Positions 396 through 60,096 of a stretch of DNA of 64,000 nt are shown here, in pieces. This DNA is from Carcharhinus amblyrhynchos. Lineage: Eukaryota. The DNA is taken from NCBI GenBank assembly GCA_965287045.1, contig OZ336878.1, forward strand, positions 100,254,001 to 100,318,000, given 5' to 3'. Under the pieces are notes generated by a model. That model had not been told where the DNA came from. It saw only the letters and a list, made by a program, of their open reading frames with translations, and did no database searches. Both the position numbers and the translations under genes were made by a program. Position 1 is the stretch's first letter. Each line of letters starts with the position of its first letter.

Positions 396-499
396 ACTAT
401 GGTCCTCCAAGGTGCTTTTGATAAAGATGAGGGTGTGCATGTGTTGGGGGTGGCGGGGTTTGGGGAAGGGGAGTACGGAGCGGATGGTTAGAACTAGGA

Positions 500-2889: not shown

Positions 2890-3545
2890 CATTACCGCAG
2901 CCTAACAGTCAGCACCAACACCTTGCAGTGAATGTGGGAGATGCAGCAGTTCACATTGACCAGAAACTAGCTGGACAAGTTAAATAAGTGCTGCAGTGAC
3001 AAGCTGCAGTCAGAGGACGGGTACCATGCAATGAGTAACTCCCCATCACACAGCCTACCTACGATTTACAAGGAGAACGCCAGGAATGTGATGGGATTCT
3101 CAACACTCGCCTGATTGAAAGATACTGAACCAACACGCCAGAAGCTGCAAACCATCCAGGGCGGCATACCGTTCGCCTACCTTACATATTCACTCCCTCC
3201 ATCACCAGTGCACTGTGGCTGTATTGTGTACCATACACAAGATGTAATGCAGCTACACTTCAAACCTCCTTTGATGACACTTTCCAAATTTATGACATCT
3301 ACCACCTGGAAGGACAAAACTGTCGGTGCAGGAAACGGCACCACCTGCAGGTTCCACTCCAAGTCATACAACTTTGTGATTTGGGAACATATCACTGTGC
3401 CTTCATGGCAATTGTGTCAAAATCATGGCACTCTCCCTCCCAAACAGTAGTGTGGGGGGACATCGAAACCCGATGCAGCATTTCAAGAAAACCAACGTCT
3501 CCCCCATTACATGAAACAATTAAAAGACGCAATAATTTGGGTCAC
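2890..3545 (+). mobile_element. Degenerate LINE 3' region (CR1/L2 group; duplicate ~34790-35450)
   Basis: Related to 13600-14400 and 31290-31690; TACAAGG...CAGGAATGTGATGG, CACCACCTGCAGGTTCCACTCCAAGTCA. Confidence 0.55.
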
Positions 3546-3554
3546 AATGTTAAT

Positions 3555-4043
3555 TTGAGGTTGGAATTACTCTGAGGGACTGCATTTAGTTAATGGACTG
3601 TATCAGTTTGAGGACAGTATCAATTTGAGTGTCTGTATTAGTTCGAGAGGATGCGGTTGTTTGAGGGGCTGTATTAGTTTGAGAGAATTTAAGAGTTGAG
3701 AGAACGTACCAGTTTGAGAGAATACCTTAGTTTGAGGGACTGTTTCAGTTTGTGAGATTGCATCTGCTTGTGGGACTGCAACAGTTGTGGGATTGTAACA
3801 GTTTGAGAGAATATATTAAGTTAAGAGAATGCATTCATTTGAGGGACTGTATTAGTTTGAGTGATTATAACAGTTGATGGATTGTACCAGTTTGAGAAGT
3901 TGTATCGTTGGATGGAATGGTACTAGTTTGGGGACTGCATTAGTTTAATGGACAGCACCAGTTAGGGTTTGTACCAATTTGAGAGAATCTGTTCATCTTG
4001 AGGAGCTGTATCAATTTGAGGGACTGTATCAATTTGACGAATT
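3555..4043 (+). repeat. Degenerate ~18-bp tandem array upstream of gene A
   Basis: Roughly 25 diverged units; consensus approximately TTTGAGGGACTGTATCAG. Confidence 0.85.
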
Positions 4044-4104
4044 GTTTTCTTTTCAGAGAAAGTCCTCATCTGATTTATTGAGTGGACTGGTACGTGTTAA
4101 AGAA

Positions 4105-4258
4105 TGATATGGAGATGCCGGCGTTGGACTGGGGTAAATACAGTAAGAAGTCTCACAACACCAGGTTAAAGTCCAACCAGTTTATTTGAGAGTAAAAATG
4201 ATCCTTTTCACTATCAAATAAACTTGTTGGATTTTAACCTGGTGTTGTGAGACTTCCT
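4105..4258. mobile_element. Short Penelope-like insertion forming a hairpin, with ~13-14 bp TSD (duplicate 36025-36177)
   Basis: Arms 4143-4198 and 4205-4260. TSD (T)ACGTGTTAAAGAA 4092-4104 / ACATGTTAAAGAA 4259-4271. Same terminal sequence as the GIY-YIG-bearing element at 28481-29019. Confidence 0.75.
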
Positions 4259-4547
4259 ACATGTTAAAGAAGGCAGCCACATCTCAGATGCAGCCGCACA
4301 GTCCTGAGAAGACAGTTCATATTTGAAATGGTAATTGCTGAATAGACACAGCTGAGAAAATCGTCATTGTAATATTGTGAGATCTGGGGAAGGACATGAT
4401 GCTGTGAGACTTATCAACACGATTGCTCAGAGAATAGAACTTCCAATTATTATTTGGTGAATTTGTGTGAATAAAACTGATCAGTCTTTTGTTTATCCCA
4501 ATGTAATCTCAGATCTAAACATGGTCTTTCACAACAGGCAGTGAACT

Positions 4548-4645
4548 CAGCTGTTGCAAAATGCTGACTTGTTTTGTTTTCAGAAACACATTTGAAAGAT
4601 GTTGTAACTTCAACGTCCCCATGGAGATGTCACAGTGTATAAAAA
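4548..4645 (+). promoter_or_regulatory. Putative core promoter of gene A
   Basis: CAGCTG 4548-4553, ATGTTGTAAC, TCCCCATGGA 4616-4625, TATAAAA 4638-4644 (87 nt before ATG). Conserved in the paralogues. Confidence 0.65.
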
Positions 4646-4724
4646 CAGTGAATATATCACACACGTGTTGAATTCAGAGAGATTGCCTGTACCACCAAGG
4701 ACAGATCACACCCTACAGAAAAAT

Positions 4725-7700
4725 ATGGAACCATTTCAAAGGATTCTAAAAATATACTACACAATTCTTGCTATCATTGGTGTACCTGGTAAGTGACTAA
4801 GAACGCTGAAGTTGTGTGAGTTGTTTTCTGTTTTACTCTGTGATTGGTAATGTTATACACTGATCTACTGGTGACTGTTATAATAAACTCGATCAATGAG
4901 ATCATTTGATTCAGTGTGTAGCTGAATCAGACATCAGTATATGCAACTCTGAGAGGAGAGATCTTCCTGGATGGAAATGTTACAGTACAGTTATAATACA
5001 TGTGGGTCACCACCCAGAACAATTTGTTTCTTTTGTTATGTCCAGGTTTGTGCTGATGAGTCTCTCCACCTCACAGATCTGTTTCTGTGTTTCTGAATGT
5101 CACCAGTGACTAAGCCAAATATTTTTTTTTGTTGTTGGCTCAAAGTGTTGTGAATAAATGTATCCAATGAAATACATTGATACTGTTCAGTCTCCACTGG
5201 AACTGCTACAGAAATGTTAAAAACAAATAGTTAAACATGGGAACCACCCAGTTACAGCATTCAAACCCTGTGGACAATAACGTCCTCCCACACACAGCAT
5301 AACTGCTGAAAACACTGTTTTTGTTTCATTGCTGTTTCCCTCAACACAGCTTTGAGAATCTGTGGATGATAGATGTTTTTTATTATTATTGGCATTCACA
5401 GGGGGTGAATTTTGGGCTATGTCAATTAAATTCCCAAATGTTCAATGTTTAACAGACCAGTAATAATCCAGATCGTGAGTTTCAACACACATAGCTTACA
5501 CTGATCTCCACTTTTAGCTCAGTGACGTATATCCCCTCGAGAAAAGACAGTTATGACTGAAGAACATTGATGTTGCATTTCGGAATGTAGAAATCAGTTT
5601 GGAAACAGTAAATGTGAACATTATTGCATTGCTAGTAATGAAATAAATAGTGTACATCTCAATTAAAACGTCACTTCTCCAAAGTTATCAAAGTATTGCT
5701 AAACGTGATTAATTAATTAATTAAAAGGGTAATATCGAACATGTAGCTCAGGTACAAACCATATGGCCTTCGATGTACAACACAGAAACTTTCTCCCATC
5801 ACTCTCCATGTGACTGTTTAGCACAGCTTTCTGTATTCTGTACCACTGTCTGTTTTTACCCCTGAAATTCCCTTTAAGTTAATTCACCCTATTCACATTA
5901 ACGTCTCCAAGTTGTCGTGAAATCCACATTCTGACCATTCTTTGAGAAGATCTGTTGCCCAAGTACAGTTTTGGATTTATTAATGACTATGGTATTTTAA
6001 TGATATTTTATCTCAGACCACCCATCAATTGTAGATGTCTTCTCTGTGGCCACTTTATCAAACACATTCCTCATTTTCCAGCACCTGTCGATCTGAGATC
6101 AGCATTAACTTTTCTAAAGAAAGACCTCGACCTGTTCCTTCTTTCTGGGCAGTTAAAATCTCTCAATTCTGATATTACCCATCTCAAAGATTTTGTACCT
6201 TCTGCTGTGCATTCAGACCCTTGTTGTACTCTGGCAACCAGACTGTGCACAATGTGTTCATTATCAAGAACCAATGTTTTATATAGGTTTACGGTAACCT
6301 TTTTTATTTTCAATTCTTTCCCACTCAAAATGAAACTCGGTGATTTCTTTGATGTTTTATAATGTGTGTGGTGAATTTAGATGATTTGTGCATCTGGAGG
6401 CCTTTCTTCTTTATCTTGACCTTTTATTTTACATCACATATGTAGGAACATGACTTGACCAGTTAAGAGCAAACTCTAGACATTTATTAATGAACAACAA
6501 CTATTTACAGCCTGATGCACATTTATGCTTCCAGACATGACTTTAGGCTCTAACTGCTAGAACAAGCCGAGACAAGTTGGAGTGAAGCCCCAACTCGTTT
6601 CCCGATTGTTCAGCCCTGGTCATGTGACCCTTTCAGAATATTGCCCCTGAAAGGGGTCAGACACCAGCCCTCCCCCTCCCAATTCCTTTATGGACAGCAA
6701 AATAGTTCATTTAGATTGTCCCCATAATTTACAATTACAATTACAATTGGGGCGGCACGTTGGCACAGTGGTGAGCACTGCTGCCTCACAGCTCCAGGGA
6801 CTTGGGTTCGATTCCCGACTTGGGTCACCGTCTCTGTGGAGTTTGCACATTCTCCCCATGTTGGCATGGGTTTCTTCCGGGTGCTCTGGTTTCCTTCCAC
6901 AGTTCAAAGATGTGTAGCATAGGTGGATTGGCCATGTTAAATTGCTCCTTAGTATCAGGGGGACTAGCTGCGGTAAATGCATGGGGTTCTGGGGATGGGG
7001 CCTGGGTGAGATTGTGGCCAGTGCAGACTCGATGGGCCAAATGGCCTCCTTCTGCCCTGTAGGGATTCTATGATTCTATGGAGCTCCTGACTGTTTTGAT
7101 TACATCATTCCTTGTCTCCTTGTTAATAATTACAGTTTCCCAGAATTGCCTATTCTTTTTCCAATCATTATTTGCCAGTTTGATTCTGCCCATTATAAAT
7201 TACTTTCTTTCTCCCTCTCTCTCTGTGCATTGATTTATTTTTACCTGCAGAGTATTTGATTGCAGGAGTAAATACGCCTTTCCACACTTGCATAGCACAT
7301 TGTTGATGCTGAACCAGGATCATTTTGTGCAGTTTCACTTCCTTTACCAAAGGATCAATACATTCTCTGGACAAGGAATTTATTTTTTCATTCATCCATG
7401 GTATGTAGTTGTCTCTGCTTGGGCCAGCATTTATTGCCCATCCCATATTGCCAGTACATGGCATGCTATTTCAGACGGCAGGTAAAAGTCAAGATTCAAC
7501 TTGGCTCTGGGCTCACATGCAGATTCCTGACACGGTATGAGTGAATCTGTGTTATTGTGGGTCAATCCACAACACGTGGACTGTAGTGTTTCAAGAAGAA
7601 AGCTCACCAACACATTTTCAAGGCAAACTTGGGACATGCATTAAATGCTGGTCAGCCATATGCCATCAATGAATTAAAAAAAATCAGATTTCATGGGAAT

Positions 7701-8823
7701 CGACAATGCTTTCATGAATGCCAGGAATGGGATTTTACTGTCCCGTCCGCCATGGGAATTGGGATTGGTGATGAATAGACAGTGGAAAGGCCTGTTGATC
7801 TAGCGTGGGATTTTATGGTTTTAAGACAAGTGAGGCTGGAAAATCCCACCCCAGATATTTGTTGACAAAGAATCTCTGAAACGTAATTTCCATTCTTTGT
7901 TCTCTCTTACAGTTAACTTAGCTGCGATATTAATCCTGTCCCGAGGCAGGTGCGGCCTCTCCGCCTGCACGACTCGTTACCTGGTAGCCATGGCGACAGC
8001 GGATCTACTGTTCATTATCTGTTCAGTCTTACTCTATCGAATAGGTCCTTATTATTTCCCTTTATCATTCCTAGAAATCACTCCTGTGTGTTCTGTTACC
8101 TTTGTCCTGCTTTATGCAACCTCAGAGTGTTCTGTCTGGTTCACCGTCACTTTCTCCTTTGATCGATTTGTGGCCATTTGTTGCCAGAAGCTGAAAACAA
8201 AATATTGCACTGAGAGAACTGCGGCTGTGGTTCTAGCAGCAACCAGCATTCTGCTCTGTTTAAAGAATATTCCCTTCTACTTTAGATTTGAACCTAGAGA
8301 GATAATTGGTAATGTTCCCTGGTTTTGTCAGGAAAAGCCAAGCTATTATATTGATCCAAGATGGGTGGCATTTGACTGGTTTGATAAGATTTTAAGCCCA
8401 TTTCTCCCATATTTTTCAATTCTGTTGCTCAACGCTCTGACAGTCAGATGCATCTTAATGACCAGTCAAGACCGTAAGGGACTTAGGGGTCAGAGCAAGG
8501 GAGAGAATCACAGTGACCCAGAGATGGAAAGCCGAAGGAAGTCTGTGATTTTACTCTTCACCATATCCGGCAGCTTCATACTTCTCTGGCTGTTATATGT
8601 TACATATTTCTTTTATTATACAACTACTGGAATCAATTCTGAATCTTACAGTGATTCTTTATATGTCTTTGCGGAAGTTTCAGTTATGCTGGTAGATTTA
8701 AGTTGTTGCACAAACACATTTATTTATGCAGTAACTCAGAGCAAATTTAGGGAACAGTTAAAGTGTGCAGTGGGACATCCGATTGCAACAGTTATCCAAT
8801 TAATTAATAAAGAAGGCAACTGA
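4725..8823 (+). CDS. Gene A: GPR139/GPR142-like class A GPCR, intact, 324 aa; join(4725..4788,7913..8823)
   Basis: Exon 1 ATGGAACCA...GTACCTG|GTAAGT encodes MEPFQRILKIYYTILAIIGVP. Acceptor TTCTCTCTTACAG|TTAAC; G+TT restores Val in frame with ORF 7897..8823. 64+911=975 nt. Seven hydrophobic segments, AxAD in TM2, ITPVC (C3.25), DRF, PWFC in ECL2, NTFIY in TM7. TM1 resembles GPR139 VYYSLLLCLGLPANI (recalled). Confidence 0.92.
6441..6681 (-). mobile_element. 3' LTR with polypurine tract, in the intron of gene A (also 38332-38571 in C)
   Basis: On minus: GGGAGGGGGAGGG, then TG...CA (6666..6441) containing AATAAA. Confidence 0.6.
6750..7080 (+). mobile_element. HE1-like SINE in the intron of A (duplicate 38641-38968)
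   Basis: Full head, core and GATTCTAT-repeat tail. Confidence 0.9.
7726..7851. mobile_element. MITE-like element just upstream of the exon 2 acceptor (also ~39612-39737; decayed ~59010-59122)
   Basis: Imperfect TIRs GGGATTTTAC ... GAAAATCCC. Confidence 0.45.
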
Positions 8824-16020: not shown

Positions 16021-18583
16021 TAAAACAATTAAAGTGTTGCAACTGTTGTAAGTTTAAGTTTGGGAACTAAAATATTGATTTAATGGAAATTTGCTTAAGA
16101 AAATCTGAGGTGACTCCATCCTTGGCTTGTCTCATTAAACTAAATGTTGGGAAAGAGGTTAAATTAATGGTTGAATTACAACTGTATAAAATATATATAT
16201 ATTTTATTACAGCTAAGCAGACAAATTTAATAGCAATATGCTCAAACTCACTTATTTTCCAACATTAGGGGGCGAGCGAGGGGCAGAAAATCCCTCCCAT
16301 AAGCTCGGTATTGTCATTGCAACTTTTCAACATTTATGTTGCCAGCGATTGATCAGAACCGGCGACTCAAATGTTGAGAATATAGAATAATGACAAATTT
16401 TAACTGATGGTGTGTTCTGTCTAAACAGAGTTAATGCATTTTTGTTTAGTTAGGTTTCATTTGGATTTTCAGAGTTGGGTTTTGATTAGATTTAGTGACA
16501 GCCATGTAATTAATAAGAAGAGCTATGCTTGCAGGAAAGCCAGTGCTGTAAATTATTTTAACAAAAAGGGGATTTTAATCCTGATGCGCATAATTTTAAG
16601 TTGTACTGACTCTCAGATCCTCTCTCTTCCCTAACTTCAGAGCTATTTCTGTTGGCAAAATAGAGTCATGGTTACCACACCAGGCAGTTATAAATTTTGT
16701 GATTTCTTCTGATGTAGGGCAGAAGAAACTGTTTGTAAAACGCGCTTTCCGACAGACAGAGATTGCTGGGAGTTCACAAAACTTTTCCTTCTGTGGGCTG
16801 AGTTCTCCCAACAGCTAAATTGTGGAGGTCCTGATACACCTTTTCCCATTCAGAACATCCTTTATCAGAACTAACCTCCGCAGAAGTCATGCCAAATTAT
16901 ACTCATGAGTTCGCAATTTAGTAAACAGTTATGAAGTTCATGCCTCATCTCCTTCATTCATCCTTGAACATGTTTACTCGCATCTTTGCATTGTATTTTC
17001 CATTGTTATTAAGTTCTCTGCGAAACTTGTGTTTATAGTGTTGTTCGACAATCATCATGTCAAAAGCACTGGTTTCTTCGATACAGTTATCTCTACAACT
17101 TTGTAGTTTCCATATCGAAAATATTACAGACTGACAGTCAGTGGAACACACTTGGAACTATCAAATTGGCTTGATTTTCATATCATCACGATTTCCTGGC
17201 ATTAATTGATTTGCCTATTAGTTATCCTGCTGAATCACTCAATTCAAAAAATTACAATGAAACGTTCCTTCTTTGAAGTTCATGAGTCAATCAGTAAAGT
17301 TAATCTAAAGTGCACATGGAGAGATATTTTGGACATTAGTTGTTTATTAAAGAGGACACACAGAAATGCAATGTTCCATTCTGGAAACAACTATACTGTT
17401 GATCGAAAGAACATCACCTAGTTCCATACTTCACCATCTGGCTTCAAAATGAATTAAGGCTCCTTTTCCCCACAGCCACGACTACTAGTGGGGGGTGGGG
17501 GTGGGACGTTTTAATTCAAAATGATTCTGGTACGATTCAATTGATTGAAGTATTGAGGAGATTCCCTCTTTTGCTTTCTTTACTCATGAGTTGAATAATT
17601 GATGTAAACGGACATTTAATTAAACTCTTGAACTGCTCCCTGAACTTGGATTGAGTCACCCCATAGATAAGTGTGTTTGTGCAGCAGTTTAATTCCACCA
17701 GCATAGATCCGACTTCCTTACAAATATATGAAGAATCATTAAAATCATCTGGATTAATACCTCTAATTGTATAATACAAGAAGTTTAATACATATAAAAG
17801 CCACAGAAGTATAAAGCTGCCAGATATGGCGAAAAGTAAAATCATAGACTTCCTTCTGCTCTCCATCTCTGGGTCACTGTGATTCTTCCCCTTATTCTGA
17901 CTCTTCAGTCCTTTACGGACTCGACTGCTCACTAAAATGTACCTCACTGTCATAGCATTGAACAACAGAATTAAAATATATGGGAGAAATGGGGTTGAAA
18001 TCGTATCAAACCAGTCAAATGCCACCCAAGCAGGATCAGTATAATAGCTTGGATTACTATCACAGAACCAAGGAACATCGTCAATTATCACACCAGGTTG
18101 AAATGTAAAGTAAAAGGGAAGGCATTTTAAACAGTTCAGGATGCAGGTTATTGTTAGAACCACGGTTGCATTTTTCTCAGTGCAATATTTTATTTTCAGT
18201 TTCTGACAACAAATGGCTATAAAGCGATCAAAGGAGAACATGACAGTAAACCAGGTCGAGCAGTTTGCAGCTGCAAAAAGTAGGACAACAATAACACTAC
18301 ACACAGGGGTGATGTCCAGAAAAGATCCTGGGAAATAACAAGAACTGATCCGATACAGTACCACCTGAATGAAATTGAATATTAGATCCGACAATGCCAC
18401 GGCAACCAATTAACGGGTGGTGCAGGTGGAGAGGCCACACATTCTCCGGGACAGGGCCACGGTTGTCAGTAAATTGACTGCAGGCGAGATAAAGAGAAAA
18501 AGATTAGATACATTCAACTAAACTTCATTGTGCCTGAATTCGTTCAGTGAGTGCATGATTTCACAACTCAGAAATCGATTATT

Positions 18584-18645
18584 TGTGTGTGTGTGTGTGA
18601 GTGTGTGTGTTTGTGTGTGCATCTGTGTGTGTGGATGTGTGTTTA
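18584..18645. repeat. (GT)n microsatellite in the B1 intron (also 25324-25372 in B2)
   Basis: Interrupted TG run. Confidence 0.9.
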
Positions 18646-19869
18646 CGTGGTGCTCCGGGGGTAATGTTTAAGAAATTTCAATCCCATCTTCAATCTGCCG
18701 ATTGCCAGATGGAATGAGATTGCGTTGGAGAGAAGGGACAAACAGCTACTCCCTCTAGAAGAGCTGGAATTTTCATTATTTAATGATAATCGAAATCTCT
18801 GATTTAATGAGGTTCACATTTGTTTCTCTGGCCAGATGCATTTTGCCCTGTTGGATTCCACATTGATAATCCCAGCCTGAGCAATCCCTGGACACTTGGA
18901 TTTGGACTCCATCAACTCTGGGGTGACATGCTGTTCAGATACTTTAGGATTGCCCCCTCCCAACCATCCACCCGCCCACCTCCCCAGCCTCCATTGCAAT
19001 TGGGCACTTCATCTGATCCTCACTGTGAATGGATGTCTTCATGCCCTGGGGAATTATTGGATCATGCAAGGTCTGAAAATTTCAATATTAAATGCTGATA
19101 GGAGCCCCATGACTGAACCACCTCTGGGGTTGGAATGGATTTGGAGTGCCACTGTGAGGTCTAATAGTTTTTTGACCCACTATTCGGGCAGGGTGAAAGG
19201 TTGGTCGCAATCCTTGAATCTGGAAAGTAAACTAATGTGGTCAGAGAAGACGGGCGAGGAAAAATGAAATTCATGAGCTTCTCTAATTCCACAGTAAACA
19301 TTCGTGTTTACACTAAAAATTGCAGGAAAATCATAATAATAATTAAATATTAATGAGGGAGGACATATTTGATAAAGTGACAAGGATAAGGTAAAACCGC
19401 AGTCAGAGGCACAAATATCTGTTCATAATCATCATCAGAATAGGGAATAGCGACAGTTCTGTCCTGCTCTGACCCTCTCAGTAAACAGTTACCGTGCGTT
19501 TCTGTTGATGTCGATGACAACACAACAGAGCAATACCAATATATAGAGTCATCCGGCAGTACAGAACTAAAGTGTTATTGAAAAAGGTGAGGTGAGGAAG
19601 CTTCTTGTCTTACAGACATCAGGGCATGGTCCTGATGTGGATATTGATGCAAAGTGTCTGAGGAGTGCAAAACACTCCACTTGTCTCTTTCTTCAGCAAT
19701 GCCAATATATTCTATTTATCAAGTACCCGGAACGATCACCCAATGGCAAAGATTTCCTCTGTTACCATTGATTACATTTGTACAATCACAGGGACGGCTC
19801 GATGGTTTCGAGAGATCATTCACCTGAAACAGCAGGTCCAAGGGAGAAACCACTTGGTTCCACTCAGAT

Positions 19870-20215
19870 AGGTAACACACTCAGCACAATTCCATACTGA
19901 CAAATACTCCCAGTAACACACAGACACTCAGATCAGGAGTTCCTCTCCAGTTAGTGACCCAAACTGTTCAGTTCTCTAGTTACACATTTCCCTGTAATAC
20001 ATTGTCACCAGGGTTAGTATTCCATTCCAGTTGAGACCCACAATCTGAAGCAGATACTCCCAGTAACACATGGCTGAGATCAGGTGTTACACGCTAGTTT
20101 GTGACCCATATGGAGTAAAATTATGCAGTGACAGATACGACCAGTACTACATAATCACTGGGATCATATGTTCCACTCAAGTTGGTGACCCATCCAATAC
20201 ATGCAATTCTTCAGT
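19870..20215. repeat. Degenerate ~70-80 bp tandem repeat in the B introns (also 26590-26900)
   Basis: Recurring ACARATACTCCCAGTAACACA...GATCAGG...GTGACCCA units, 4-5 copies. Confidence 0.6.
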
Positions 20216-20678
20216 GAAAGAGACACCAAAAGTACAGGAATGTTTTAGGTCAAGTGGTCCATTCTGTTTCAGATCCTCGGTACAATATTACAGTGACAGT
20301 TATTCCCAGCGTTTGTTTCATTTTGCTCGTTCACGGTGTTAAAATCTATCGTGTTCTACACAGTGTTCCACTATGAGCAATTACTCTTTGTCTTCCTTTC
20401 AGTTGAGGTAAAATAATAAAACCAGAGTGGTAATTCGGGAGATTTGACTTAAAGTATCATCGATTTCGTGCCTGTAAATTGGTGGCCACCAAATCTGCTT
20501 AAAACCAGAGATGAGCTCATAGTGATAGATAAACACAACTTCAAAGATCATACTCGCTTACCAGGGACACCGATGACAGAAAGAATCATGTAGTATATTT
20601 TCCTGATCGTCTCAAATGTTTCCATACTTTACTGTGAAGTGATCTATCTTTTGAGTGATATGTGCTGGGAGCCTTTCA

Positions 20679-20784: not shown

Positions 20785-21119
20785 GGCCATGCGTTCGTTA
20801 TGGCAAATGTATTTATTACTGAGATCTGCTTGGAAAATCCCAAAATCCAGATAATATTGATAACATTAACTTGCTAAAGGAAATGGGCACTGCAAGTTCG
20901 ATGCACATTGTACATGTTTTCAAACTCTATCATTCACGTATCTAGAATTCATATTGTTTCAGTGATTTCCTTTATTCTGGTGTGCTCATTCAGTCAAAAA
21001 CATTCCACAATTTTGAGTGTGAAATTGAGTCATTGGATTTCTGAATTTAACAAATACAGCACTCGAAGACAGGACTTAAATCGAAGGCAGCAACTCCAGC
21101 CAATATTGTTTCAAATTAA

Positions 21120-21483
21120 CTGAGCAGCTCAAACTGAGAAAGCAATTCAAAGAATACAACTCCACGAATTTACATGGTCTATCAAATCAGGATAATCTTT
21201 CAATTAATGCAGTCTCTCAAACTGGGACATATACTCAACTTGATATAGTCCATCAAACCAGCACAGATCCTCAATCTGATACAGTCCCTCAAACTAATTA
21301 AGATCCGCAAAAAAAACCCTCAAACAACTACAGTCCCTCAAATACGGCAGTCCTTAAAACTAATAAAGGGCATCAAACGAATAAAGACCCTCAAACCAAA
21401 ATAGTCCCTCTAACTAGTATAGTTGCACAAAGTAATAAGACGCTCAAACAAATACAGATCCTCAAAGGAATACAACCGCAAAT
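21120..21483 (-). repeat. Same 18-bp array upstream of B1
   Basis: CTGATACAGTCCCTCAAA near 21276 is the exact reverse complement of the unit; many diverged flanking copies. Confidence 0.8.
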
Positions 21484-24277: not shown

Positions 24278-27200
24278 TCAATTGGTTGAAGTATTGAGGA
24301 GATTCCCTCTTTTGCTTTCCTTACTCGTGAGTTGAATAATTGATGTAAACGGACATTTAATTATACTCTTGAACTGCTCCCTGAACTTGGATTGAGTCAC
24401 CCCATAGATAAATGTGTTTGTGCAGCAGTTTAATTCCACCAGCATATATCCGACTTCCTTAAAAATATATGAAGAATCATTAAAATCATCTGGATTAATA
24501 CCTCTAATTGTATAATACAAGAAGTTTAATATATATATAAGCCACAGAAGTATAAAGCTGCCAGATATGGCAAAAAGTAAAATCATAGACTTCTTTCTGC
24601 TCTCCATCTCTGGGTCACTGTGACTCTCCCCCTTATTCTGACTCTTCAGTCCTTTACGGACTCGACTGCTCACTAAAATGTATCTGACTGTCATAGCATT
24701 GAACAACAGAATTAAAATATATGGGAGAAATGGATTTGAAATCCTATCAAACCAGTCAAATGCCACCCAAGCAGGATCAGTATAATAGCTTGGATTATTA
24801 TCACAGAACCAGGGAACATCGTCAATTATCGCACCAGGTTGAAATGTAAAGTAAAAGGGAATGCATTTTAAACAGTTCAGGATACACGTTGTTGACAGAA
24901 CCACGGTTGCGGTTTTCTCAGTGCAATATTTTATTTTCAGTTTCTGACAACAAATGGTCACAAAGCGATCAAAGGAGAACATGACAGTAAACCAGGTGGA
25001 GCAGTTTGCAGCTGCGAAAAGTAGGATAACAATAACACTACACACAGGGGTGATGTCCAGAAAAGATCCTGGGAAATAACGAGAAATGATTCGATTCAGT
25101 ACCACCTGAATGAAATTGAATATTAGATCTGACAATGCCATGGCGACCAAGTAACGGGTGGTGCAGGTGGAGAGGCCACACATTCCCCGGGACAGGACCA
25201 CAGTTGTCAGTAAATTGACTGCAGGCGAGATAAAGAGAAAAAGATTAGATACATTCAACTAAACTTCATTGTGCATGAATTCGTTCAGTGAGTGCATGAT
25301 TTCACAACTCAAAAATTGATTATTGTGTGTGTGTGTGTGTGAGTGTGTGTGTGTGGGTGTGGGTGTGTGTTTACGTGGTGCTCCGGGGGTAATACTTAAG
25401 AAATTTCAAACCCATCTTCAAGCAGCCGACTGCCAGATGGAATGAGATTGTGTTGGAGAGAAGGGACAAACAGCCACTCCTTTTAGAAGAGCTGGAATTT
25501 TCATTATTTAATGATAATCGAAGTCTCTGATTTAATGAGGTTCACATTTGTTTCTCTGGCCAGATGCATTTTGCCCTGTTGGATTCCACTTTGATAATCC
25601 CAGCATTCACAATCCCTGGACACTTGGATTTGGACTCCATCAACTCTGGGGTGACATGCTGTTCAGATACTTTGGGATTGCCCCCTCCCAACCACCCACC
25701 CGCCCACCTCCTCAGCCTCCATTGCAATTGGGCACTTCATCAGCTCTTCACTGTGAGTGGATCTCTTCATGCTGTGGGGAATTATTGGATCATGCAAGGT
25801 CTGAAAATTTCAATATTAATTGCTGATGGGAGCCCCATGACTGAACCTCTGTTGGGGTTGGAATGGGTTTGGAGTGACACTGTGAGGTCTAATAGCTTTT
25901 TCACCCACTATTCAGGCAGGGTGAAAGGTTGTTCGCAATCCTTAAATCTACAAAGTAAGCTCATGTGGTCAGAGAAGACCGGGGAGGAAAAATGAAATTC
26001 ATGAACTTCTCTAATTCAACAGTAAACATTAGTGAGTACATTGCAGGAAAATCATAATAATAAATAAATATTGGTGAGGGAGGACATATTTGATAAAGTG
26101 ACAAGGATAAGGTAAAACCGCAGTCAGAGGCTCAAATATCTGTTCATAATTACATTAGAATAGGGAATAGTGGCAGTTCTGTCCTGCTCTGACCCTCTCA
26201 ATAAACAGTTACCATGTGTTTCTGTTGATGTCAAACAGAACATAACAGAGCAACACCAATATACAGAGTCATCTGGCAGGACAGAACTAAAGTGTTGTTG
26301 AAAAAGGTGAGATGAGGAAGCTTCGTGTCTTACAGACATCAGGGCATGGTCCTGACATGGATATTGATGCAAAGTATCTGAGGAGTGCCAAACACTCCAC
26401 ATGTCTCCTGTTTCAGCAATTCCAATATATTCTATTTATCAAGTATTCGGAATGATCACTCAATGGCAAAGATTTCCTCTGTTACCATTGATTTCATTTG
26501 TACAATCACAGGGACAGCTCGATGGATTCGAGAGATCATTCACCTGAAACAGCAGGTCCAAGGGAGAGACCAGTTGGTTACATTCAGATAGGTAACCCAC
26601 TCAGCACAATTCCATGCTGACAAATACTTCCAGTAACACATAAACACTGAGATCAGGAGTTCCACTCCAACTAGTGTCCCACACTGTTCAATTCTCTCAT
26701 TACACATTTCCCTGTAATACATTGTCACCAGGGTTAGTATTCCATTACAGTTGAGACCCACAACCTGAGACAGTTACTCCGGTAATACATGGTTGAGATC
26801 AGGTGATCCATATGGAGTAAAATTATTCAGTGACAGATACGACCAGCACGACATAATCACTGGGATCATATGTTCCACTTAATTTAGTGACCCACCCAAT
26901 ACATGCAATTCCTCAGTGAAAAGACACCAAAAATACATGAACATTGGGGGGTCAAGTGGTCCATTCTGTTTAAGATCGTCAGTGCAATATTACAGTGACA
27001 GTTATTCCCTGCATTTGCTTCATTTTGCTAGTTCACGGTACTCAAATCTATTGTGTTATACAAAGTGTTCCACTATGAGCAATTACTCTTTGTCTTCCTT
27101 TCAGTTGAGGTAAAATAATAAAACCAGAGTGGTAATTCGGGAGATTTGACTTAAAGTATCATCGATTTCGTGCCTGTAAACTAGTGACCACCAAATCTGC

Positions 27201-27327
27201 TTAAAACCAGAGACGAGCTCATACTGATAGATAAACACGACTTCAAAGATCATACTCACTTACCAGGGACACCGATGACAGCAAGAATCATGTAGTATAT
27301 TTTCCTGATCATCTCAAATGTTTCCAT
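24278..27327 (-). CDS. Gene B2: GPR139/GPR142-like class A GPCR, intact, 334 aa; complement(join(24278..25218,27264..27327))
   Basis: Exon 1 METFEMIRKIYYMILAVIGVP|GTAAGT; acceptor TTTATCTCGCCTGCAG|TCAAT. 64+941=1005 nt. DRF, VPWFC, SDPEMESR and NTFIY motifs present. Confidence 0.92.
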
Positions 27328-27500: not shown

Positions 27501-27834
27501 GGTCACGCTTTTGTTCTGGCAAAATGTATTTATTACTGAGGTCTGCTTGGAAAATCCCAAAATCCAGATAATATTGATAACATTAACTTGCGAAAGGAAA
27601 TGGACACTGCAAGTTCAATGCACATTGTACATGTTTTCAAACTCTATCAGTCATGTATCTAGAATTCATATTGTTTCACTGATTTCCTTTATTCTGGTGT
27701 GCTCATTCAGTCAAAAACATTCCACAATTTTGAGTGTGAAATTGAGTCATTGGATTTCTGAATTTAACAAATACAGTACTCAAAGACAGGACTTCAATCG
27801 AAGGCAGCAACTCCAGCCAATATTGTTTCAAATT

Positions 27835-28195
27835 AACTGAGCAGCTCAAACTGAGAAAGCAGTTCAAAGAATACAACTCCATAATCTTACATGGTCTATC
27901 AAATCAGGATAATCTTTCAATTAATGCAGTCTCTCAAACAGGGACATCTACTCAACTTCATATAGTCCCTCAAGCCAGCACAGACCCTCAATCTGATACA
28001 ATCCCTCAAACTAATTAAGATCCACAAAAAAATTAAGATCCTCAAACAACTACAGTCCCTCAAATACTGCAGTCCTTAAAACTGATAAAGGACATCAAAT
28101 GAATAAAGACCCTCAGGCCAAAATAGTCCCTCCAACTAATAGAGTCCCACAAAGTAATAAGACACTCAAACAAATACAGATCCTCAAAGGAATGT
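27835..28195 (-). repeat. Same 18-bp array upstream of B2
   Basis: Repeated ...AGTCCCTCAAA...-type units. Confidence 0.8.
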
Positions 28196-35454: not shown

Positions 35455-35963
35455 ATTTGAGGTTGGAATTACTCTGAGGGACTGCATTTAGTTAATGGAC
35501 TGTATCAGTTTGAGAACAGTATCAATTTGAGTGTCTGTATTAGTTCGAGAGGATGCGGTTGTTTGAGGGACTGTATTAGTTTGAGAGAATTTAAGAGTTG
35601 AGGGAACGTACCAGTTTGAGAGAATACCTTAGTTTGAGGGACTGTTTCAGTTTGTGAGATTGCATCTGCTTGTGGTACTGCAGCAGTTTTGGGATTGTAA
35701 CAGTTTGAGAGAATATATTAAGTTAAGAGAATGCATTCATTTGAGGGACTGTATTAGTTTGAGTGATGATAACAGCTGATGTATTGTACCAGTTTGAGAA
35801 GTTGTATCGTTGGATGGAATGGTACCAGTTTGGGGGCTGCATTAATTTAATGGACAGCACCAGTTAGGGTTTGTACCAATTTGAGAGAATGTGTTCGTCT
35901 TGAGGAGCTGTATCAATTTGAGGGACTGTATCAATTTGAGGGAATGTATCAATTTGAGGAATT
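35455..35963 (+). repeat. 18-bp array upstream of C
   Basis: Copy of the gene A array with one additional unit near 35920-35960. Confidence 0.85.
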
Positions 35964-36467
35964 GTTTTCTTTTCAGAGAAAGTCCTCATCTGATTTATTG
36001 TGTGGACTGGTACGTGTTATAGAATGATGTGGAGATGCCGGCGTTGGGCTGGGGTAAACGCAGTAAGAAGTCTCACAACACTAGGTTAAAGTCCAACAAG
36101 TTTATTTGATAGTAAAAATGATACTTTTTACTATCAAATAAACTTGTTGGATTTTAACCTGGTGCTGTGAGACTTCTTACGTGTTAAAGAAGGCAGCCAC
36201 ATCTCAGAGTGCAGCCGCACAGTCCTGAGAAGACAGTTCATATTTGAAATGGTAATTGCTGAATAGAGACAGCAGAGAAAATGGTCATTGTAATATTGTG
36301 AGATCTGGGGAAGGACATGATGCTGTGAGACTTATCAACACCATTGCTCGGAGAATAGAACTTCCAATTATTACTTGGTGAATTAGTGTGATTAAAACTG
36401 ATCGGTCTTTAGTTTATCCCAATGTGATCTCAGATCTAAACATGGTCTTTCACAACAGGCAGTGAAC

Positions 36468-36645: not shown

Positions 36646-39600
36646 ATGGAACCGTTTCAAGGGATTCTAAAAATATACTACACAATTCTTGCTATCATTG
36701 GTGTACCTGGTAATTGAGTGTGAACACTGAAGTTGTGTAAATCTGTGTGAGTTGTTTTCTGTTTTACTCTGTGATTGAGAATGTTATACACTGATCTACT
36801 GGTGACTGTTATACATAAACTCGATCAATGAGATCATTTGGTTAAGGGTGTATCTGAATCACACATCAGTATATGCAACTCTGAGAGGAGAGATCTTCCT
36901 GGATGGAAATGTTACGGTACAGTTATAATACATGTGGGTCACCACCCAGAACAATTTCTTTCTTTTGTTACGTACAGGTTTGTGCTGATGAGTCTCTCCA
37001 CCTCATGGATCTGTTTCTGTGTTTCTGAATGTCACCAGTGACCAAGCCGAATATTTTTTGTTATTGGCTCAAAATGTTTATGAATAACTGTATCCAAAGA
37101 AATATATTGATACTGTTCAGTCTCTACTAGAATATTACAGAAGACAGAAATGTGAAAAGTAGTTAAACACTGGGACCACACAGTTACTGCATTCAAACCC
37201 TGTAGACAATAACGTACTCTCACACACAGCATAGTTGCTGAAAACACTGTTTTTGCTTCACTGCTGATTAATCTGTTTTCCTCAACACAGCCTTGAGAAT
37301 ATGTGGGTCATGGATGTTTCGTTTTTTATTATTGGCATTCACAGTGGGTGAATTTTGGGCTATGGCAATTAATTTCCCAACTGTTCAATGTTTAACAGAC
37401 CAGTAAGAATCCAGATCATGAGTCTCAACACACAAAGCTGACACTGATCTCCGCTTTTAGCTGAGTGAGGCATATCCCCTCGAGAAAGGACAGTTACGAC
37501 TGAAGAACATTGATGTTGCATTTGGAATGTAGAAATCAGTTTGGAGGCGGTAAATGTGAAATTTATTACTTTGCTAGTAATGAAATAAATAGTGTGCACC
37601 TCAATTAAAAGGTCACTTGTGCAAAGTTATCAAAGGATTGCTAATTGTGATTAATTAATTAATATATTTATAGAGCCATATTGAATATGTAGCTCAGGAC
37701 ATATCACATGGCTTTTGTTGGACTGCACAGAAACGTTCTTCCATCACTGTCCATATAATCTGTTCAGCAAGCTTCTCCTATTCTGTACCACTGTCTTTTT
37801 TTTAAAATTTCCCTTTAAATTAATCCATGCTGTTCACATTAAAGTCTCCATGTTGCAGTGAATTACACATTCTGACCGTTCTTTGAGAGGATCTGTTCCC
37901 CCGAATACACTTTTGAATTTATTAATGATGATACTATTCTAATGAGATTTATTCTGATACCACCCATCAATTGTAGATGTTGTCTCTGTGGTCACTTTAT
38001 CGTACACATTCCTCATTTTCCAAAGAAAGACCTCAACCTGTTCCTTCTTTCCAGAGAGTTAAAATCTGTCAATTCTGATATTACCCATCTCAAAGATTTT
38101 GTACCGTTTTCTGTGCATTCAGATCCTTGTTGTACTCTGGCAACCAGACTGCGCACAATGCATTCATTATCAAGAACCAATGTTTTATAACCTCTTTTAT
38201 TTTCAATTCTTTCCCACTCTCAAGGGAACTTGGTGATTTGTTTGATTTTTTTAACTCGTGTGGTGAATTTAAATGATATGTGCATCTGGAGGCCTTTCTT
38301 CTTTATCTTGACCTTTTTTTTATATTACATATGTAGTAACATGACTTGACCAATTAAGAGCAACCTCCAGACGTTTATTAATGAACAGCAACTATTTACA
38401 GACTGATGCACATTTATGCTTCCAGACATGACTTTAGGCTCTAACTGCTGGGACAAGCCGAGACAAGTTGGAGTGAAGCCCCAACTCGGTTCCCGATTGT
38501 TCAGCCCTGGTCATGTGACCGTTTCAGAAGATTGCCCCTGAAAGGGGTCAGACACCACCCCTCCCCCTCCCAGTTCCTTTATGGACAGCATAAGAGTTCA
38601 TTTAGATTGTCCCCATAATTTACAATTACACTTACAATTGGGGCAGCACGGTGGCACAGTGGTGAGCACTGCTGCCTCACAGCTCCAGGGACTTGGGTTC
38701 GATTCCCGACTTGGGTCACCATCTGTGTGGAGTTTGCACATTTTCCCCATGTTGGCATGGGTTTCTCCTGGGTGCTGCGGTTTCCTTCCACAGTTCAAAG
38801 ATGTGCAGCTTTGGTGGATTGGCCAGACTAAATTGTCCCTTGTTATCAGGGGGACTAGCTACGGTAAATGCATGGGTTATGGGGATGGGGCCCGGGTGAG
38901 ATTGTGGCCAGTGCAGACTCGATGGGCCAAATGGCCTCCTTCTGCCCTGTAGGGATTCTATGACTCTATGGAGCTCTTGACTGTTTTGATTATATCATTC
39001 ACTGTCTCCTTGTTAATAATTACAGTTTCCCAAAATTGTCTATTCTTTTTCTCATCATTATTTGCCAGTTTGATTCTGCCCATTATAAATTACTTTCTTT
39101 CTCCCTCTCTGTGTATTGATTTATTTTTACCTGTAGAGTATTTGATTGCAGGAGTAGATATGCCTTTCCACACTTGCACAGCACATTGTTGATGCTGAAC
39201 CAGGATCATTTTGTGCAGTTTCACTTCCAAAAGATCAATACATTCACTGGAGAAGGAATTTATTTTTTCATTCATCTATGGATTGTAGTTGTCTCTGCTT
39301 GGGCCAGCATTTACTGCCCATCCCATATTGCCAGTACACGGCATGCTATTTCAGAGGGCAGGTAAAAGTCAAGATTCAACTTGGCTCTGGGCTCACATGC
39401 AGATTCCTGAAACAGTATGAGTGAATCTGTGTTATTGTGGGTCAACCCACAACACGTGGACTGTAGTGTTTCAAGAAGAAAGCTCACCAACACATTTTCA
39501 AGGCAAATTTGGGATGCGCATTGAATGCTGGTCAGCCATCTCGCACCAATGAATAAAAAAAAACAAGATGAGGATTCATGGGAATCGACAATGCTTTCAT

Positions 39601-40556
39601 GGGTGCCAGGAATGGGATTTTACTGTCCCGTCTGCCATGGGACTCGGAACTGGTCAGGAGTAGACAGTGGAAAAGTCTGTTGATCTGGCATGGGATTTTA
39701 TGGTTTCAAGACAAGTGAGGCCGTAAAATCCCACCCCAGATATTTGTTGGCAAAAAATCTCTGAAACATAATTTCCATTCTTTGTTCTCTCTTACAGTTA
39801 ATTTAGCTGCGATATTAATCCTCTCCCGAGGCAAGTGCGGCCTCTCCACCTGCGCCTCTCGTTACCTGGTGGCCATGTCAACAGCGGATCTACTGTTCAT
39901 TATCTGTTCAGTCTTTCTCTATCGAATAGGTCCTTATTATTTCCCTTTATCTTTCCTAGAAATCACTCCTGTATGTTGTGTGACCTTCGTACTGCTTTTT
40001 GTGACCACAGAGTGTTCTGTCTGGTTCACTGTCACTTTCTCCTTTGATCGATTTGTGGCCATTTGTTGCCAGAAGCTGAAAACAAAATATTGCACTGAGA
40101 GAACTGCGGCTGTGGTTCTTGCAGCAACTGCCTTTCTGCTATGTTTAAAGAATATTCCCTACTACTTTAGATTTGAACCACGAGAGATAATTGATAATGT
40201 TCCCTGGTTTTGTCAGGAAAAGCCAAGCTATTATATTGATCCAAGATGGGTGGCATTTGACTGGTTTGATAAGATTTTAAGCCCATTTGTCCCATGTTTT
40301 TCAATTCTGTTGCTCAACACTGACAGTCAGATGCATCTTAATGACCAGTCGAGCCTGTAAACGACTGAGGGGTCAGAGCAAGGGAGAGAATCACAGTGTC
40401 CCAGAGATGGAAAGCCGAAGGAAGTCTGTGATTTTACTGTTCACCATATCCGGCAGTTTCATACTTCTCTGGCTGTTATATGTTACACATTTCTTTTATT
40501 ATACAACTACAGGAATCAATTCTGAATCTTACAGTGATTCTTTATATGTCTTTGCG
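36646..40556 (+). pseudogene. Gene C: A-type GPCR pseudogene (exon 1 36646..36709, exon 2 from 39798)
   Basis: 2-nt deletion near 40321 (CTCAACACTGACAG vs CTCAACGCTCTGACAG in A) splits the ORF. Homology stops after YVFA at ~40556, so TM7 and the C-terminus are deleted. TATA mutated to TACAAAA. Confidence 0.9.
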
Positions 40557-55610: not shown

Positions 55611-55969
55611 CCACCCCGCTCCGCCTCCCACACCCCCGCCACTCCCCACATCCCAAACACGGATCTCACAGCAATTCCTGAGCCAGCCTTGGCCATCCCT
55701 TCCTGGAGCGTGACGATGCACAGCCTACACCCCCAGCACTGGCAACCCCCCCACCTCCCTCATCACAGTACCCGCCCCACCCCGGGCTGATCGCCTCACA
55801 GAATGGCATAGAACATTACAGCGCAGTACAGGCCCTCCGGCCCTCGATGTTTCGCCGACCAGTGGAACCAATCTAATGATCCTCTAACCTAAACTATTCC
55901 AGTAGGTAGAACCCCTCTCCCCCTCCGCACTGCGGAGGCAGGCCCCACCATCGGCAAACAATGTAAGAA

Positions 55970-56301
55970 TTGAGGGGATGTAGCAGTTGAGAGAATACCT
56001 TAGTTTGAGGGCATGTTTCAGTTTGTGGGACTGTATCTGCTGGTGGGGCCGCTACAGTTGTGGGATTGGAATAGCTTGAGAGAATATATTAGGTTGAGGG
56101 AATATATTCATTTGAGGGACTGTATTAGTTTGAGGGATTATAACAGTTGACGGATTGTACCAGTTTGAGAGAATGTATTGTTGGATGGATGGTACCAGTT
56201 TGGGGACTTTATTAGTTTAAGGGACAGCACCAGTTAGGATTTGTACCAATTTGAGAGAATATGTTTCATCTTGAGGGGCTGAATCAGTTTGAGGGACTGT
56301 T
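55970..56301 (+). repeat. 18-bp array upstream of E
   Basis: Alignable to the proximal two-thirds of the gene A array. Confidence 0.85.
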
Positions 56302-56630
56302 TTCTTTTCAGAGAAAGTCGTCACCTGTATTTTTGAACAGACAGGTGAAATAAGGCGGCCACATCTCAGAGTGCAGCCACACAGTCCTGAGAAGACACCT
56401 CATATGTGAAATGGTAATTGCTAAATAGACACGGCAGAGAAAATGGTCATTGTAATATTGTGAGATCTGGGGAAGGACATGATGCTATGAGAATTATCAA
56501 CACCATTGCTCGGAGAATAGAACTTCCAATTATTACTTGGTGAATTAGTGTGATTAAAACTGATCAGTCTTTAGTTTATCCCAATGTGATCTCAGATCTA
56601 AACATGGTCTTTCACAACAGGCAGTGAACT

Positions 56631-56806: not shown

Positions 56807-59800
56807 ATGGAATCATTTCAAAGGATTCAAAAAATATACTACACTATTCTTGCTATCGTTGGTGTACCTGGTAAGTGACTGTGAACACTGAAGTTGTGTA
56901 AGTCTGTGTGAGTTGGTTTCTGTTTTACTCTGTTATTGATAATTCACTTATCTACTGGTGAATGTTATACAGAAACCTGATCAATGAGATCATTTGGTTA
57001 AGGGTACAGCTGAATCGGATATCAGTACAGGCAATTCTGAGAGGAAAGATCTTCCTGGATGTTTATCTTACGATACAATTGTACTGGATGTGGGTCACCA
57101 CCCAGAAAAAATTGTTTTTTTCTATGTGCAAGTTTGCGCTGATGAATCTGTCCACCTCATGGATCTGTTTATGTGTTTCTGAATGTCACTGGTGACCAAG
57201 CAGAATATTTTTGTTGTTCTGTTGGCTCAAAATGTTTGTGAATAAATGCACCCAATGAAATATATTGATACTGTTCAGTCTCTATTAGAACTGCTACAAA
57301 AGACAGAAATGTTAACTGCAAACAGTTAAACATTGGGACCACACAGTTACTGCATTCAAAGCCTGTAGATGACGGCTTACTCTCGCACACAGTATAGTTA
57401 CTGAAAACACATTATTTGTTTTATTGTTGATTAATCTCCTTCTCTCAACACAGCCTTTTGAATCTGTGGGTCATGGATTTTTTTTTTATGAATGGCAATC
57501 ACAGTGGGTGAATTTAGGCCAATGGTCAATGAATTTCCCAATTGTTTAACGTTTAACAGACCAGTAACAATCCAGATCATGAGTTTCGACGCACATAACT
57601 TAAATCGATCCTGCATTTAGCTCAGTGAACTGTATCACATCAAGAGAGAATAGTTATGACTGAAGAATATTGATTAATTAATTAATAGGGTCACATCAAA
57701 TATGTAGCTTCGGGATAAACAATCTGTTTTTTGCTGTACTATACATAAACCTTCCCTCATCGCTCTCCAGATAACCTGATCAGCACAGCTTTCTACTATT
57801 CTGTACTGCCTGTCTTGTTTCCTGAATTTCCCTTGAACTTGATCCATACTCTTCACATTAGCAGCTCCAAGTTGTCACGAAATCCACATTCTGACCATTC
57901 TTTCAGTAGATATGTTCCCCTTGAATACATTTTTGGCTTTATTAATGACTATAGTATTTTAATGATATTTTATCTCAGACCACCCATCAATTGTAGACGT
58001 GGTCTCCATGGCCACTTTATCGAACACATTCCTCATTTTCCAGCACCTGTCTAACTGCGGTCAGCATTAACTTTTCAAAGGAAAGACCTCAACCTGTTCC
58101 TTCTTTCTGGATAATTAAAATCTCTCAGTTCTGATATTATTCATCTCAAAGATTTTGAACCTTCTGCTGGGTATTCAGATCCTTGTTGTACTCTGGCGTA
58201 CAGACTGTGCACCATGCGTTCATTATGGAGAACCAATGTTCTATATAAGTTTACTATAACCTCTTTTATTTTCAATTCTTTTCCACTCAAAATGGAACTC
58301 GCTGATTTGTTTGACTTTTTTTAATGCATGCTTTAATTTAAATAATTTGTGGATCTGGAACTCCTTACTGCTTTGGTTGCATCACTCATTGTCTCCCTGT
58401 TTATAATTACAATTTCCTAAAGTTGCTGATTTTTGTTTTCCATTCACTATTTACCAGTTTGATTCTACCTATTAGAAATTACTCTCTTTCTCTCTCTCTC
58501 TGTGCATTGATATATTTTTACTTCTTGAATATTTGAGTGCAGGAGTACATCTGTCTTTCCACATTTGGATGGCACATTGTTAATACTGAACCTGTATTAT
58601 TTTGAATAGTTTCTCTCCTTTTACCTAAGGATAGGTACATTCGCTATCAAAGGAGTTTGTTTTTTCATCCATGGGGTGTAGTTATCTCTGCTTGGTCCAG
58701 CACTTATTACCCATCCCATATTGCCGGTACACAACATCTTATTTCTGAGGGCAGGTAGAAGTCAAAATTCAACAGTGGCGCTGGAGTCACATACAGATTC
58801 CATTCCCTAAAGGGTATGAGTGAATCTATGGCATTGTGGGTTCAACCCACAGGTGTGGACAGCAGCGTTTCAAGAAGGCAGCTCACCACCACCTTTTAAA
58901 GGCAAACTAGCGACGGGGATTAAATGTTGGCCAGCTATATCCCATCAATGAATAAAATGAAAAAGAACTGGGTTTCATGGGAATGAACAATGGTTTCATG
59001 AATGCCAGAAATGGAATTTTACTGCCCTGTCCACCATAAGAATCGGAGCTGGTGAGGAGTGGAAAGCAGATAGTTGTATTGACATAGGGTGGGATTTTAT
59101 GTTTTTGGGACAAGTCCCACCCCAGAACTTTGTTGACATACAGAATCTCTGAAACATAATTTCCATTCTTTGTCCTCTCTTACAGTTAATTTACCTGCGA
59201 TACTAATCCTGTCCCGAGGCAAGTGCGGCCTCTCCGCTTGCAGCTCTCGTTACCTGGTGGCCATGGCGACAGCAGATCTACTGTTCTTTATCTGTTCAGT
59301 CTTTCTCTATCGAATAGGTCCTTATTACTTCCCTTTATCTTTCCTGGAAATCACTCCTGTGTGTTCTGTTACCTTTGTACTGCTTTGTGCAACTGCAGAG
59401 TGTTCTGTCTGGTTCACCGTCACTTTCTCCTTTGATCGATTTGTGGCCATTTGTTGCCAGAAGCTGAAAACAAAATATTGCACTGAAAGAACTGCGGCTG
59501 TGGTTCTAGCAGCAACCGGCATTCTGCTCTGTTTAAAGAATGTTCCCTTCTACTTTAGGTTTGAACCGGGACAGATAATCAATAATATTCCCTGGTTTTG
59601 TCAGGAAAAGCCAAGCTATTATACTGATCCAAGATGGGTGGCATTTGACTGGTTTGATAAGATTTTAAACCCATTTCTCCCATATTTTTCAATTCTGTCG
59701 CTCAACAGTCTGACTGTCAGATATATTTTAGTGGCCAGTCGAGCCCGTAAGAGACTGAGGAGGCAGAGAAAGGGAGAGAATCACAGTGACCCAGAGATGA

Positions 59801-60096
59801 AAAGTCGAAGGAAGTCTGTGATGTTACTCTTCACCATATCCGGCAGCTTCATACTCCTCTGGCTGTTATATGTTACATATTTCTTTTATTACACAACTAC
59901 AGGAATCAATTCTGAATCTTACAGTGAGTCTTTATATGTTTTTGCAGAAGTTTCAGTTATGCTGGTGAACTTAAGCTGTTGTACAAACACATTTATTTAC
60001 GCAGTGACTCAGAGCAATTTCAGGGAACAGTTAAAGCATGCAGTGGAATGTCCTATTGCAAAAATTATCAAGTTAATTAATAAGGACAGCAACTGA
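56807..60096 (+). CDS. Gene E: GPR139/GPR142-like class A GPCR, intact, 324 aa; join(56807..56870,59186..60096)
   Basis: Exon 1 MESFQRIQKIYYTILAIVGVP|GTAAGT; acceptor CCTCTCTTACAG|TTAAT, in frame with ORF 59170..60096. Same motifs as gene A. Confidence 0.92.

Follow-up and report, generated by a model that had tools for sequence, protein, structure and literature searches.

A degenerate 18-bp tandem array upstream of shark receptor genes: probably a fossil minisatellite co-duplicated with the promoter of one GPCR subfamily

Introduction

The human INS VNTR and the 5-HTTLPR of SLC6A4 are composed of imperfect tandem units of 14-23 bp situated about 0.4-1.4 kb upstream of the gene. The length of such promoter-upstream VNTRs varies within the population and is linked to expression. 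Homotypic repeats also figure in work on mouse olfactory receptors (ORs): HD and O/E motifs define the promoters and enhancers of OR genes, and x21 was engineered by multimerizing a homeodomain site of 21 bp (10.1101/2022.05.05.489571, PMC12547500), with TAATGA-type Lhx2 sites on the same helical face (PMC12547500).

Here we analyze degenerate 18-bp arrays upstream of class A GPCR genes in a stretch of 64,000 nucleotides of the shark Carcharhinus amblyrhynchos, hereafter the window. Like the vertebrate promoter-upstream minisatellites or VNTRs, they consist of imperfect tandem units upstream of a gene; however, they are far more degenerate than the INS and 5-HTTLPR repeats (57-64% unit-to-unit), nearly fixed in copy number between paralogues, common to anciently split paralogues and known here from sequence alone. 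They resemble x21 and the OR elements in that a homotypic repeat precedes genes of a large, clustered class A GPCR family, but differ from them in having neither TAATGA nor O/E sites, in a period of 18 bp that is not a multiple of the helical repeat, and in that the receptors are not ORs.

A literature search, mostly over papers available without subscription, found no publication on the shark receptor expansion or the 18-bp repeat. Term searches of PMC11979771 (catshark, main text), PMC8455134 and PMC10620051 returned no passage on the receptor family, and one of PMC6504862 returned nothing on the repeat or the expansion; a search of the shark-minisatellite literature likewise produced nothing relevant to the 18-bp repeat.

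Results

Receptor genes in the window

The genes in the window are two-exon class A GPCRs of a shark-expanded family, and exon 1 is retained in five of them (A, B1, B2, C and E):

4725..4788, + strand: exon 1 of gene A, with the ATG at 4725 and 21 codons followed by a GT donor
7913..8823, + strand: exon 2 of gene A, intact, a 7tm_1 class A GPCR
17537..20625, - strand: gene B1, with the ATG at 20625 and an early in-frame stop in exon 2
24278..27327, - strand: gene B2, with the ATG at 27327, an intact two-exon GPCR
36646..40556, + strand: gene C, with the ATG at 36646, exon 2 frameshifted and 3'-truncated, a pseudogene
44129-45456, - strand: B-type intron remnant, matching most of that intron at 73% and lacking any neighboring exon 1, exon 2 or array
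49909-50222, + strand: exon-2 remnant of another family member, a decayed 3' part with stops and a frameshift, without exon 1 and without an upstream array
56807..60096, + strand: gene E, with the ATG at 56807, an intact two-exon GPCR

Gene B1 is probably a pseudogene, and the intron copy at 44129-45456 is the remnant of a further B-like gene. The Pfam domain 7tm_1 was the sole match for both exon-2 types tested. Among the best 120 of 2,223 protein matches to exon 2 of gene A, all bear shark names and 117 are named probable or putative GPR139, 'probable GPR139' being an automatic NCBI name. The window receptors share 63-78% identity and the same short exon 1 with close shark proteins, and are typical members of the shark 'probable G-protein coupled receptor 139' expansion. 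Human GPR139 matches them with E=2.8e-7, no better than GPR15, and the label is nominal in their case. A receptor query against metagenome contigs gave 108 pattern matches, none of which was confirmed. The shark expansion as a whole is only remotely like human GPR139, and this class A GPCR expansion is very large: Heterodontus alone contributes dozens of paralogues to the best 120 of the 2,223 matches.

A phased 18-bp array upstream of each gene with an exon 1

Degenerate 18-bp arrays of 19-28 units are found about 0.5-1.15 kb upstream of the ATG in all five genes with an exon 1, in each case with the polarity of the gene:

3571..4050, + strand: array upstream of A, 27 units, 77% identity to consensus
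35473..35970, + strand: array upstream of C, 28 units, those of A being followed at the 3' end by an additional near-consensus unit
55969..56305, + strand: array upstream of E, 19 units collinear with A units 8-27, its 5' end cut
21116..21466, - strand: array upstream of B1, 20 units, 71% identity to consensus
27833..28188, - strand: array upstream of B2, 20 units, 70% identity to consensus
4082..4259 (A) and 35998-36181 (C), no strand assigned: palindromic MITE-like insertion between array and promoter, absent in E

The distance from the 3' end of the array to the ATG is 675 bp in A, 676 in C, 502 in E, 491 in B1 and 506 in B2; in A and C the palindromic insertion has shifted the array about 175 bp further from the ATG. 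The units run head-to-tail with a period of 18 bp, some being of 17, and the arrays thereby qualify as minisatellites. Unit-to-unit pairwise identity is 57-64%. The consensus units derived from A only and from B only differ at one of 18 positions.

Matches to the unit with at most three mismatches number 24 in the window versus 0.09 expected from shuffles, and all 24 fall inside the five clusters. A weight matrix built from A alone recovers the B arrays and one built from B1 alone recovers those of A, C and E; matches of at least 6 bits number 11-17 per 300 bp in the five arrays and 2-3 in the best window elsewhere. The phased arrays thus bear out the preliminary description as to their location about 0.5-1.1 kb upstream of the ATG of A, C, E, B1 and B2, their shared polarity with the gene, and their absence from the rest of the window. 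Its further statement that the array precedes every receptor gene is correct for the five genes with exon 1 and does not extend to the exon-2 remnant and the B-type intron remnant.

Array A shows a weak higher-order period of 89 bp (five units), although the lag-5 signal is significant only in E (p=0.001, versus p=0.20 in A). Unit-by-unit collinearity between A-type and B-type arrays was not recovered, either along the best diagonal (p 0.02-0.66, four pairs) or at the nucleotide level (p 0.12-0.41, three pairs). We rejected a coding role for the array: stops interrupt every frame, and no array contains an open stretch of more than 70 codons. A tblastn search of 291 proteins against translations of the array, promoter and intron gave no match, a protein search with a stop-free array frame gave none among 48 candidates (weak evidence), and an array pattern scan found none in viral contigs and none in metagenome contigs. 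In Rfam, the segment 3000-5000 had no match on the array and a single weak one on the palindromic insertion (MIR5062 hairpin, 40.6 bits versus a gathering threshold of 140). Pieces related to this insertion are also found at 11979-12065 and 28966-29020.

Motif content

The preliminary description had likened the array to multimerised homeodomain sites of OR promoters, and its site content speaks against this analogy. TAATGA is absent from all five arrays, and O/E (EBF) sites, for which two patterns were used, are absent from both arrays and promoters. TAATTR is absent from A, C and E and occurs three times each in B1 and B2 (0.8 expected), with none in the consensus unit; GATA, TCF and NF-kB patterns are not enriched in the arrays. 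By site content, then, the array falls outside the class of OR-type HD/O-E choice elements. It might nevertheless work like such an element through another factor.

Depth of the array in assembled runs

Contigs of four of 24 runs (X1, X6, X9 and X17, from four samples and studies and with three different organism labels among them) were aligned on gene E at 80% identity. As contig depth is rough and gives no copy number, only orders of magnitude were used. All 30 bins of gene E are covered in each of the four runs. Summed depth is 14-248 in the array bins and 10-281 in the promoter and unique-intron bins, 199-34,634 in the exon-2 bins (with peaks of 11,000-35,000) and 91,000-742,000 in two LINE-type bins, i.e. 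more than 1,000-fold (3-4 orders of magnitude) above the array in all four runs. Hence, the array is not a high-copy repeat at 80% identity. Its central bin (52-248) resembles the bin with the end of exon 1 (125-281) and is far below the exon-2 peaks; since arrays less than 80% alike are missed by this method, the depth fits either restriction to a subfamily or presence throughout the family below 80% identity. Together with the lack of any other array in 64 kb, it ties the array to the receptor genes rather than to a common dispersed minisatellite. The central bin has 2-10 times the depth of its two neighbors, and some contigs have letters between the units that were not recognized by eye in the window arrays; further arrays may therefore exist.

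Duplication history and homology between A- and B-type genes

Genes A and C are parts of an 8.7-kb duplicate (1-8673 versus 31900-40556, 92%), and B1 and B2 of a 5.2-kb duplicate (16575-21737 versus 23320-28459, 92%), while the homology of A and E, at 83-85%, consists of four blocks that start within the array and continue through exon 2. The A-C homology extends more than 3.5 kb past the array and that of B1-B2 breaks about 250 bp 5' of it. As A/C/E and B1/B2 are segmental duplicates, the five arrays are not independent retentions: the evidence on the array is that of one origin and two retaining lineages. Just 5' of the C-bearing duplicate block, and overlapping its start, is a 374-bp inverted duplication (30902-31275 versus 32042-31669, 97%).

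In a tree of 148 rows (four window genes and their 144 best homologues, none dropped; a quick method with SH-aLRT support only), A/E and B1/B2 fall in one 18-row group (support 96) with genes of Cetorhinus, Rhincodon, Stegostoma and Scyliorhinus, and A/E are nearer a Cetorhinus gene (92) than B. On this tree, the A/B split would be older than the Jurassic separation of those shark orders, and the array is accordingly old; it lies immediately 5' of a promoter whose conservation exceeds that of the introns. The K2P distance at four-fold sites between A/E and B is 0.52-0.59 on 81 sites, a distance at which blastn loses unique DNA.

This bears on the earlier statement that A- and B-type introns do not visibly align, which is true of blastn and fails with sensitive local alignment: the latter recovers E versus B2 (z 9.6, 855 columns, 63%) and A versus B1 (z 5.8, 781 columns, 61%), with z -0.8 for a reverse-complement control. 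The first 400 bp of the intron alone give z 3.7 (E-B2) and 0.2 (A-B1), and the last 200 bp and the 3' flank did not align between the types. Between array and ATG, E and B are homologous in both the distal (z 10) and the core promoter (z 12). The supposed contrast of a kept array with lost introns thus dissolves, as A and B share homologous introns and a homologous 5' flank from array to ATG, and the same contrast arises under neutral decay.

Divergence between A and C is a mosaic, with 3% in the array, 12-18% in mid-intron and 5-8% in the 3' intron (A, C and E compared over 3686-8660), and in 5701-6200 A is closer to E than to C. Such a pattern suggests gene conversion among the paralogues, as a sign of which it confounds comparisons of regional rates.

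Decay and copy number of the units

Identity to the unit consensus is 0.77 in A and E and 0.70-0.71 in B. Neutral simulation of a homogeneous array yields 0.77 at K=0.28 per lineage and 0.70 at K=0.38; on this model, the units would have decayed at about the rate of neutral drift at the measured synonymous distance, a fit that assumes an array homogeneous near the A/B split, as an older one would need constraint or homogenisation. Of 40 pairs in the same simulation, the array could still be detected in 37, and blastn recovered a 900-bp intron in 11. Paralogues differ at 66 of 904 aligned sites with the consensus in at least one copy and at 12 of 259 sites without it; we estimate about 7% in both site classes once back-changes are allotted, i.e. 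no overall pull to the consensus.

Copy number is almost frozen between paralogues: A and C differ by one unit and B1 and B2 by none, while E has lost 5' units and its cut end lies next to LINE-like DNA. This gives no support to the idea that copy number tunes expression. Both the spacing of the array (the A/C insertion) and its size (the E truncation) have changed next to intact genes.

Signs of constraint

All p-values in the following comparisons are uncorrected and the array units are not independent. Between A and E, both intact, the array differs at 38/345 positions versus 390/2248 in the pooled intron (p=0.003), and at 43/346 versus 61/402 when compared with the nearest 400 bp of intron (p=0.29), amounting to a divergence of 11-12% versus 15-21% in introns. 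Between B1 and B2, array and intron divergence are equal (32/371 versus 156/1995, p=0.6). Within the unit there is a better-kept core, TTGA..CT. At positions 2-5, 10 and 11, chosen from B only, A-lineage changes are fewer than elsewhere (10/270 versus 42/542, p=0.03), with a change ratio of 0.48 versus 0.89 from base composition; the reverse test on B1-B2 was null (9/120 versus 17/231, p=1).

Conservation by position is correlated between A and B2 (Spearman rho 0.46, within-base permutation p=0.019), but a neutral simulation with base-specific rates reaches at least this value in 12% of runs. Positions with the same base (T) differ in conservation in A (p=0.007) and, less so, in B2 (p=0.055), again uncorrected and with units that are not independent. 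A contig of run X9 over the 5' junction of E and the array differs at 40/405 letters, and three E-like intron contigs at 52/1388, which points away from constraint if their orthology, itself inferred and uncertain, holds. The core and the lower A-E divergence are thus hints of constraint that B1-B2 does not replicate.

Discussion

Origin of the array and alternative explanations

We favor the view, with a probability of roughly 0.6, that the array is a fossil minisatellite, duplicated together with the promoter of a single receptor subfamily. A single tandem expansion of an 18-bp unit would have taken place about 0.5 kb 5' of the ATG in the founder gene of the subfamily, around or shortly before the A/B duplication. 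Each later duplication would then have carried array, promoter, exon 1, intron and exon 2 as one block, by which the position and polarity of the array are fixed with no selection on the repeat itself. The units would subsequently have decayed by point mutation at about the neutral rate, their number almost ceasing to change. Its units, being periodic copies, still betray their shared ancestry at a divergence that puts unique DNA beyond the reach of blastn, which is why the array remains visible and the introns appear lost. The arrays are co-duplicated with homologous flanks, low in copy number and neutral-like in decay; from these we infer a single origin near the root of the subfamily and the absence of a function of the array. 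Against the fossil minisatellite stand the A-E divergence below that of the pooled intron, the fewer A-lineage core changes, the unequal conservation of positions with the same base, the dependence of the neutral fit on assumed homogeneity near the A/B split, and the fact that no large deletion has taken the array from either lineage.

Several of these points are shared by a tentative alternative, to which we accord clearly less weight, namely that the array is a weak homotypic cis-regulatory element. In this view a single sequence-specific factor would bind the co-opted repeat at clustered low-affinity sites; the likeliest candidate is a zinc-finger protein of the C2H2 type that recognizes TTGAG-N5-T, rather than a homeodomain or EBF protein. 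The sites would sum to set the activity or the activation probability of the adjacent promoter, and their redundancy would let single units decay without loss of the core or of the array as a whole. This alternative is consistent with the array having been kept in both old lineages immediately 5' of a conserved promoter and with its coverage in all four runs, with the better-kept core positions in both lineages (rho 0.46, p=0.019), the deficit of core changes in the A lineage (p=0.03) and the 11-12% array divergence of A-E against 15-21% in introns. Weighing on the other side, the correlation arises in 12% of neutral runs, B1-B2 is without constraint (though B1 is a pseudogene), gene conversion of the kind suggested by the A-C mosaic can lower divergence next to the promoter, the X9 contig comparison (40/405 versus 52/1388, orthology uncertain) goes the other way, and spacing and size have changed next to intact genes. 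In its boldest form, which we consider doubtful, the array would be a putative natural multimerised enhancer of the subfamily or even of the whole shark orphan-GPCR family, in which a dedicated protein reads TTGAG-N5-T and the number of intact units sets the chance of each gene being switched on. Were this true, it would represent a receptor-choice system built on a motif unlike the Lhx2/EBF logic of mammalian ORs.

Two further explanations appear very improbable to us. One is that a common dispersed minisatellite or part of a transposon came to lie upstream of the receptors by chance. The genome is repeat-rich, LINE-like DNA is found on the 5' side of the A, C and E arrays, and the raised central bin with its unfamiliar between-unit letters leaves room for further arrays; yet array depth is 3-4 orders below the LINE bins in all four runs, the 64 kb hold no other array, and 5' of the arrays A and B have no related sequence (z 0.3-1.1), so that no shared transposon body flanks them. 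Equally improbable is a structural role without sequence-specific binding, whereby the array would promote or mark duplication or conversion breakpoints, position nucleosomes or form G-quadruplexes. The A-E homology does stop inside the array, that of B1-B2 breaks near its 5' side, and the consensus unit has one GGG run; however, the A-C homology runs on well past the array, G6-G8 do not stand out as the best conserved (0.59-0.89 in A, 0.60-0.75 in B2), and units at 57-64% pairwise identity are presumably too divergent for efficient misalignment.

As a fossil, the repeat is a marker for one receptor subfamily and has little significance beyond this and a caution: periodic sequence outlasts the alignability of unique DNA of the same age and thereby mimics conservation. 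If the weak constraint on the core is real, it would offer a handle on the regulation of a large shark orphan-GPCR family. The receptor family itself may be more interesting than the array.

The promoter between array and gene

The DNA between the array and the ATG is represented in gene A by the following feature:

4260..4724, + strand: promoter and 5' UTR of A with a predicted transcription start, containing a TATA-like site (4637-4643) and showing homology to the 5' flank of B-type genes

Promoter divergence is about half that of introns in both the A-E and B1-B2 comparisons, the latter with 19/489 differences (half the intron divergence, p=0.005). A core-promoter block is common to A- and B-type genes at about 72-76% identity, and it is a better candidate regulatory element than the array. 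The block has the form TGTTGTAAC ... TGGAGA ... TCAC ... TATA-like, and occurs at 4584-4643, 36505-36554, 56666-56725, 20739-20679 and 27454-27405. The B-type intron contains a second degenerate repeat of about three copies with a period near 84 bp, at 19898-20193 and 26618-26894 on the - strand.
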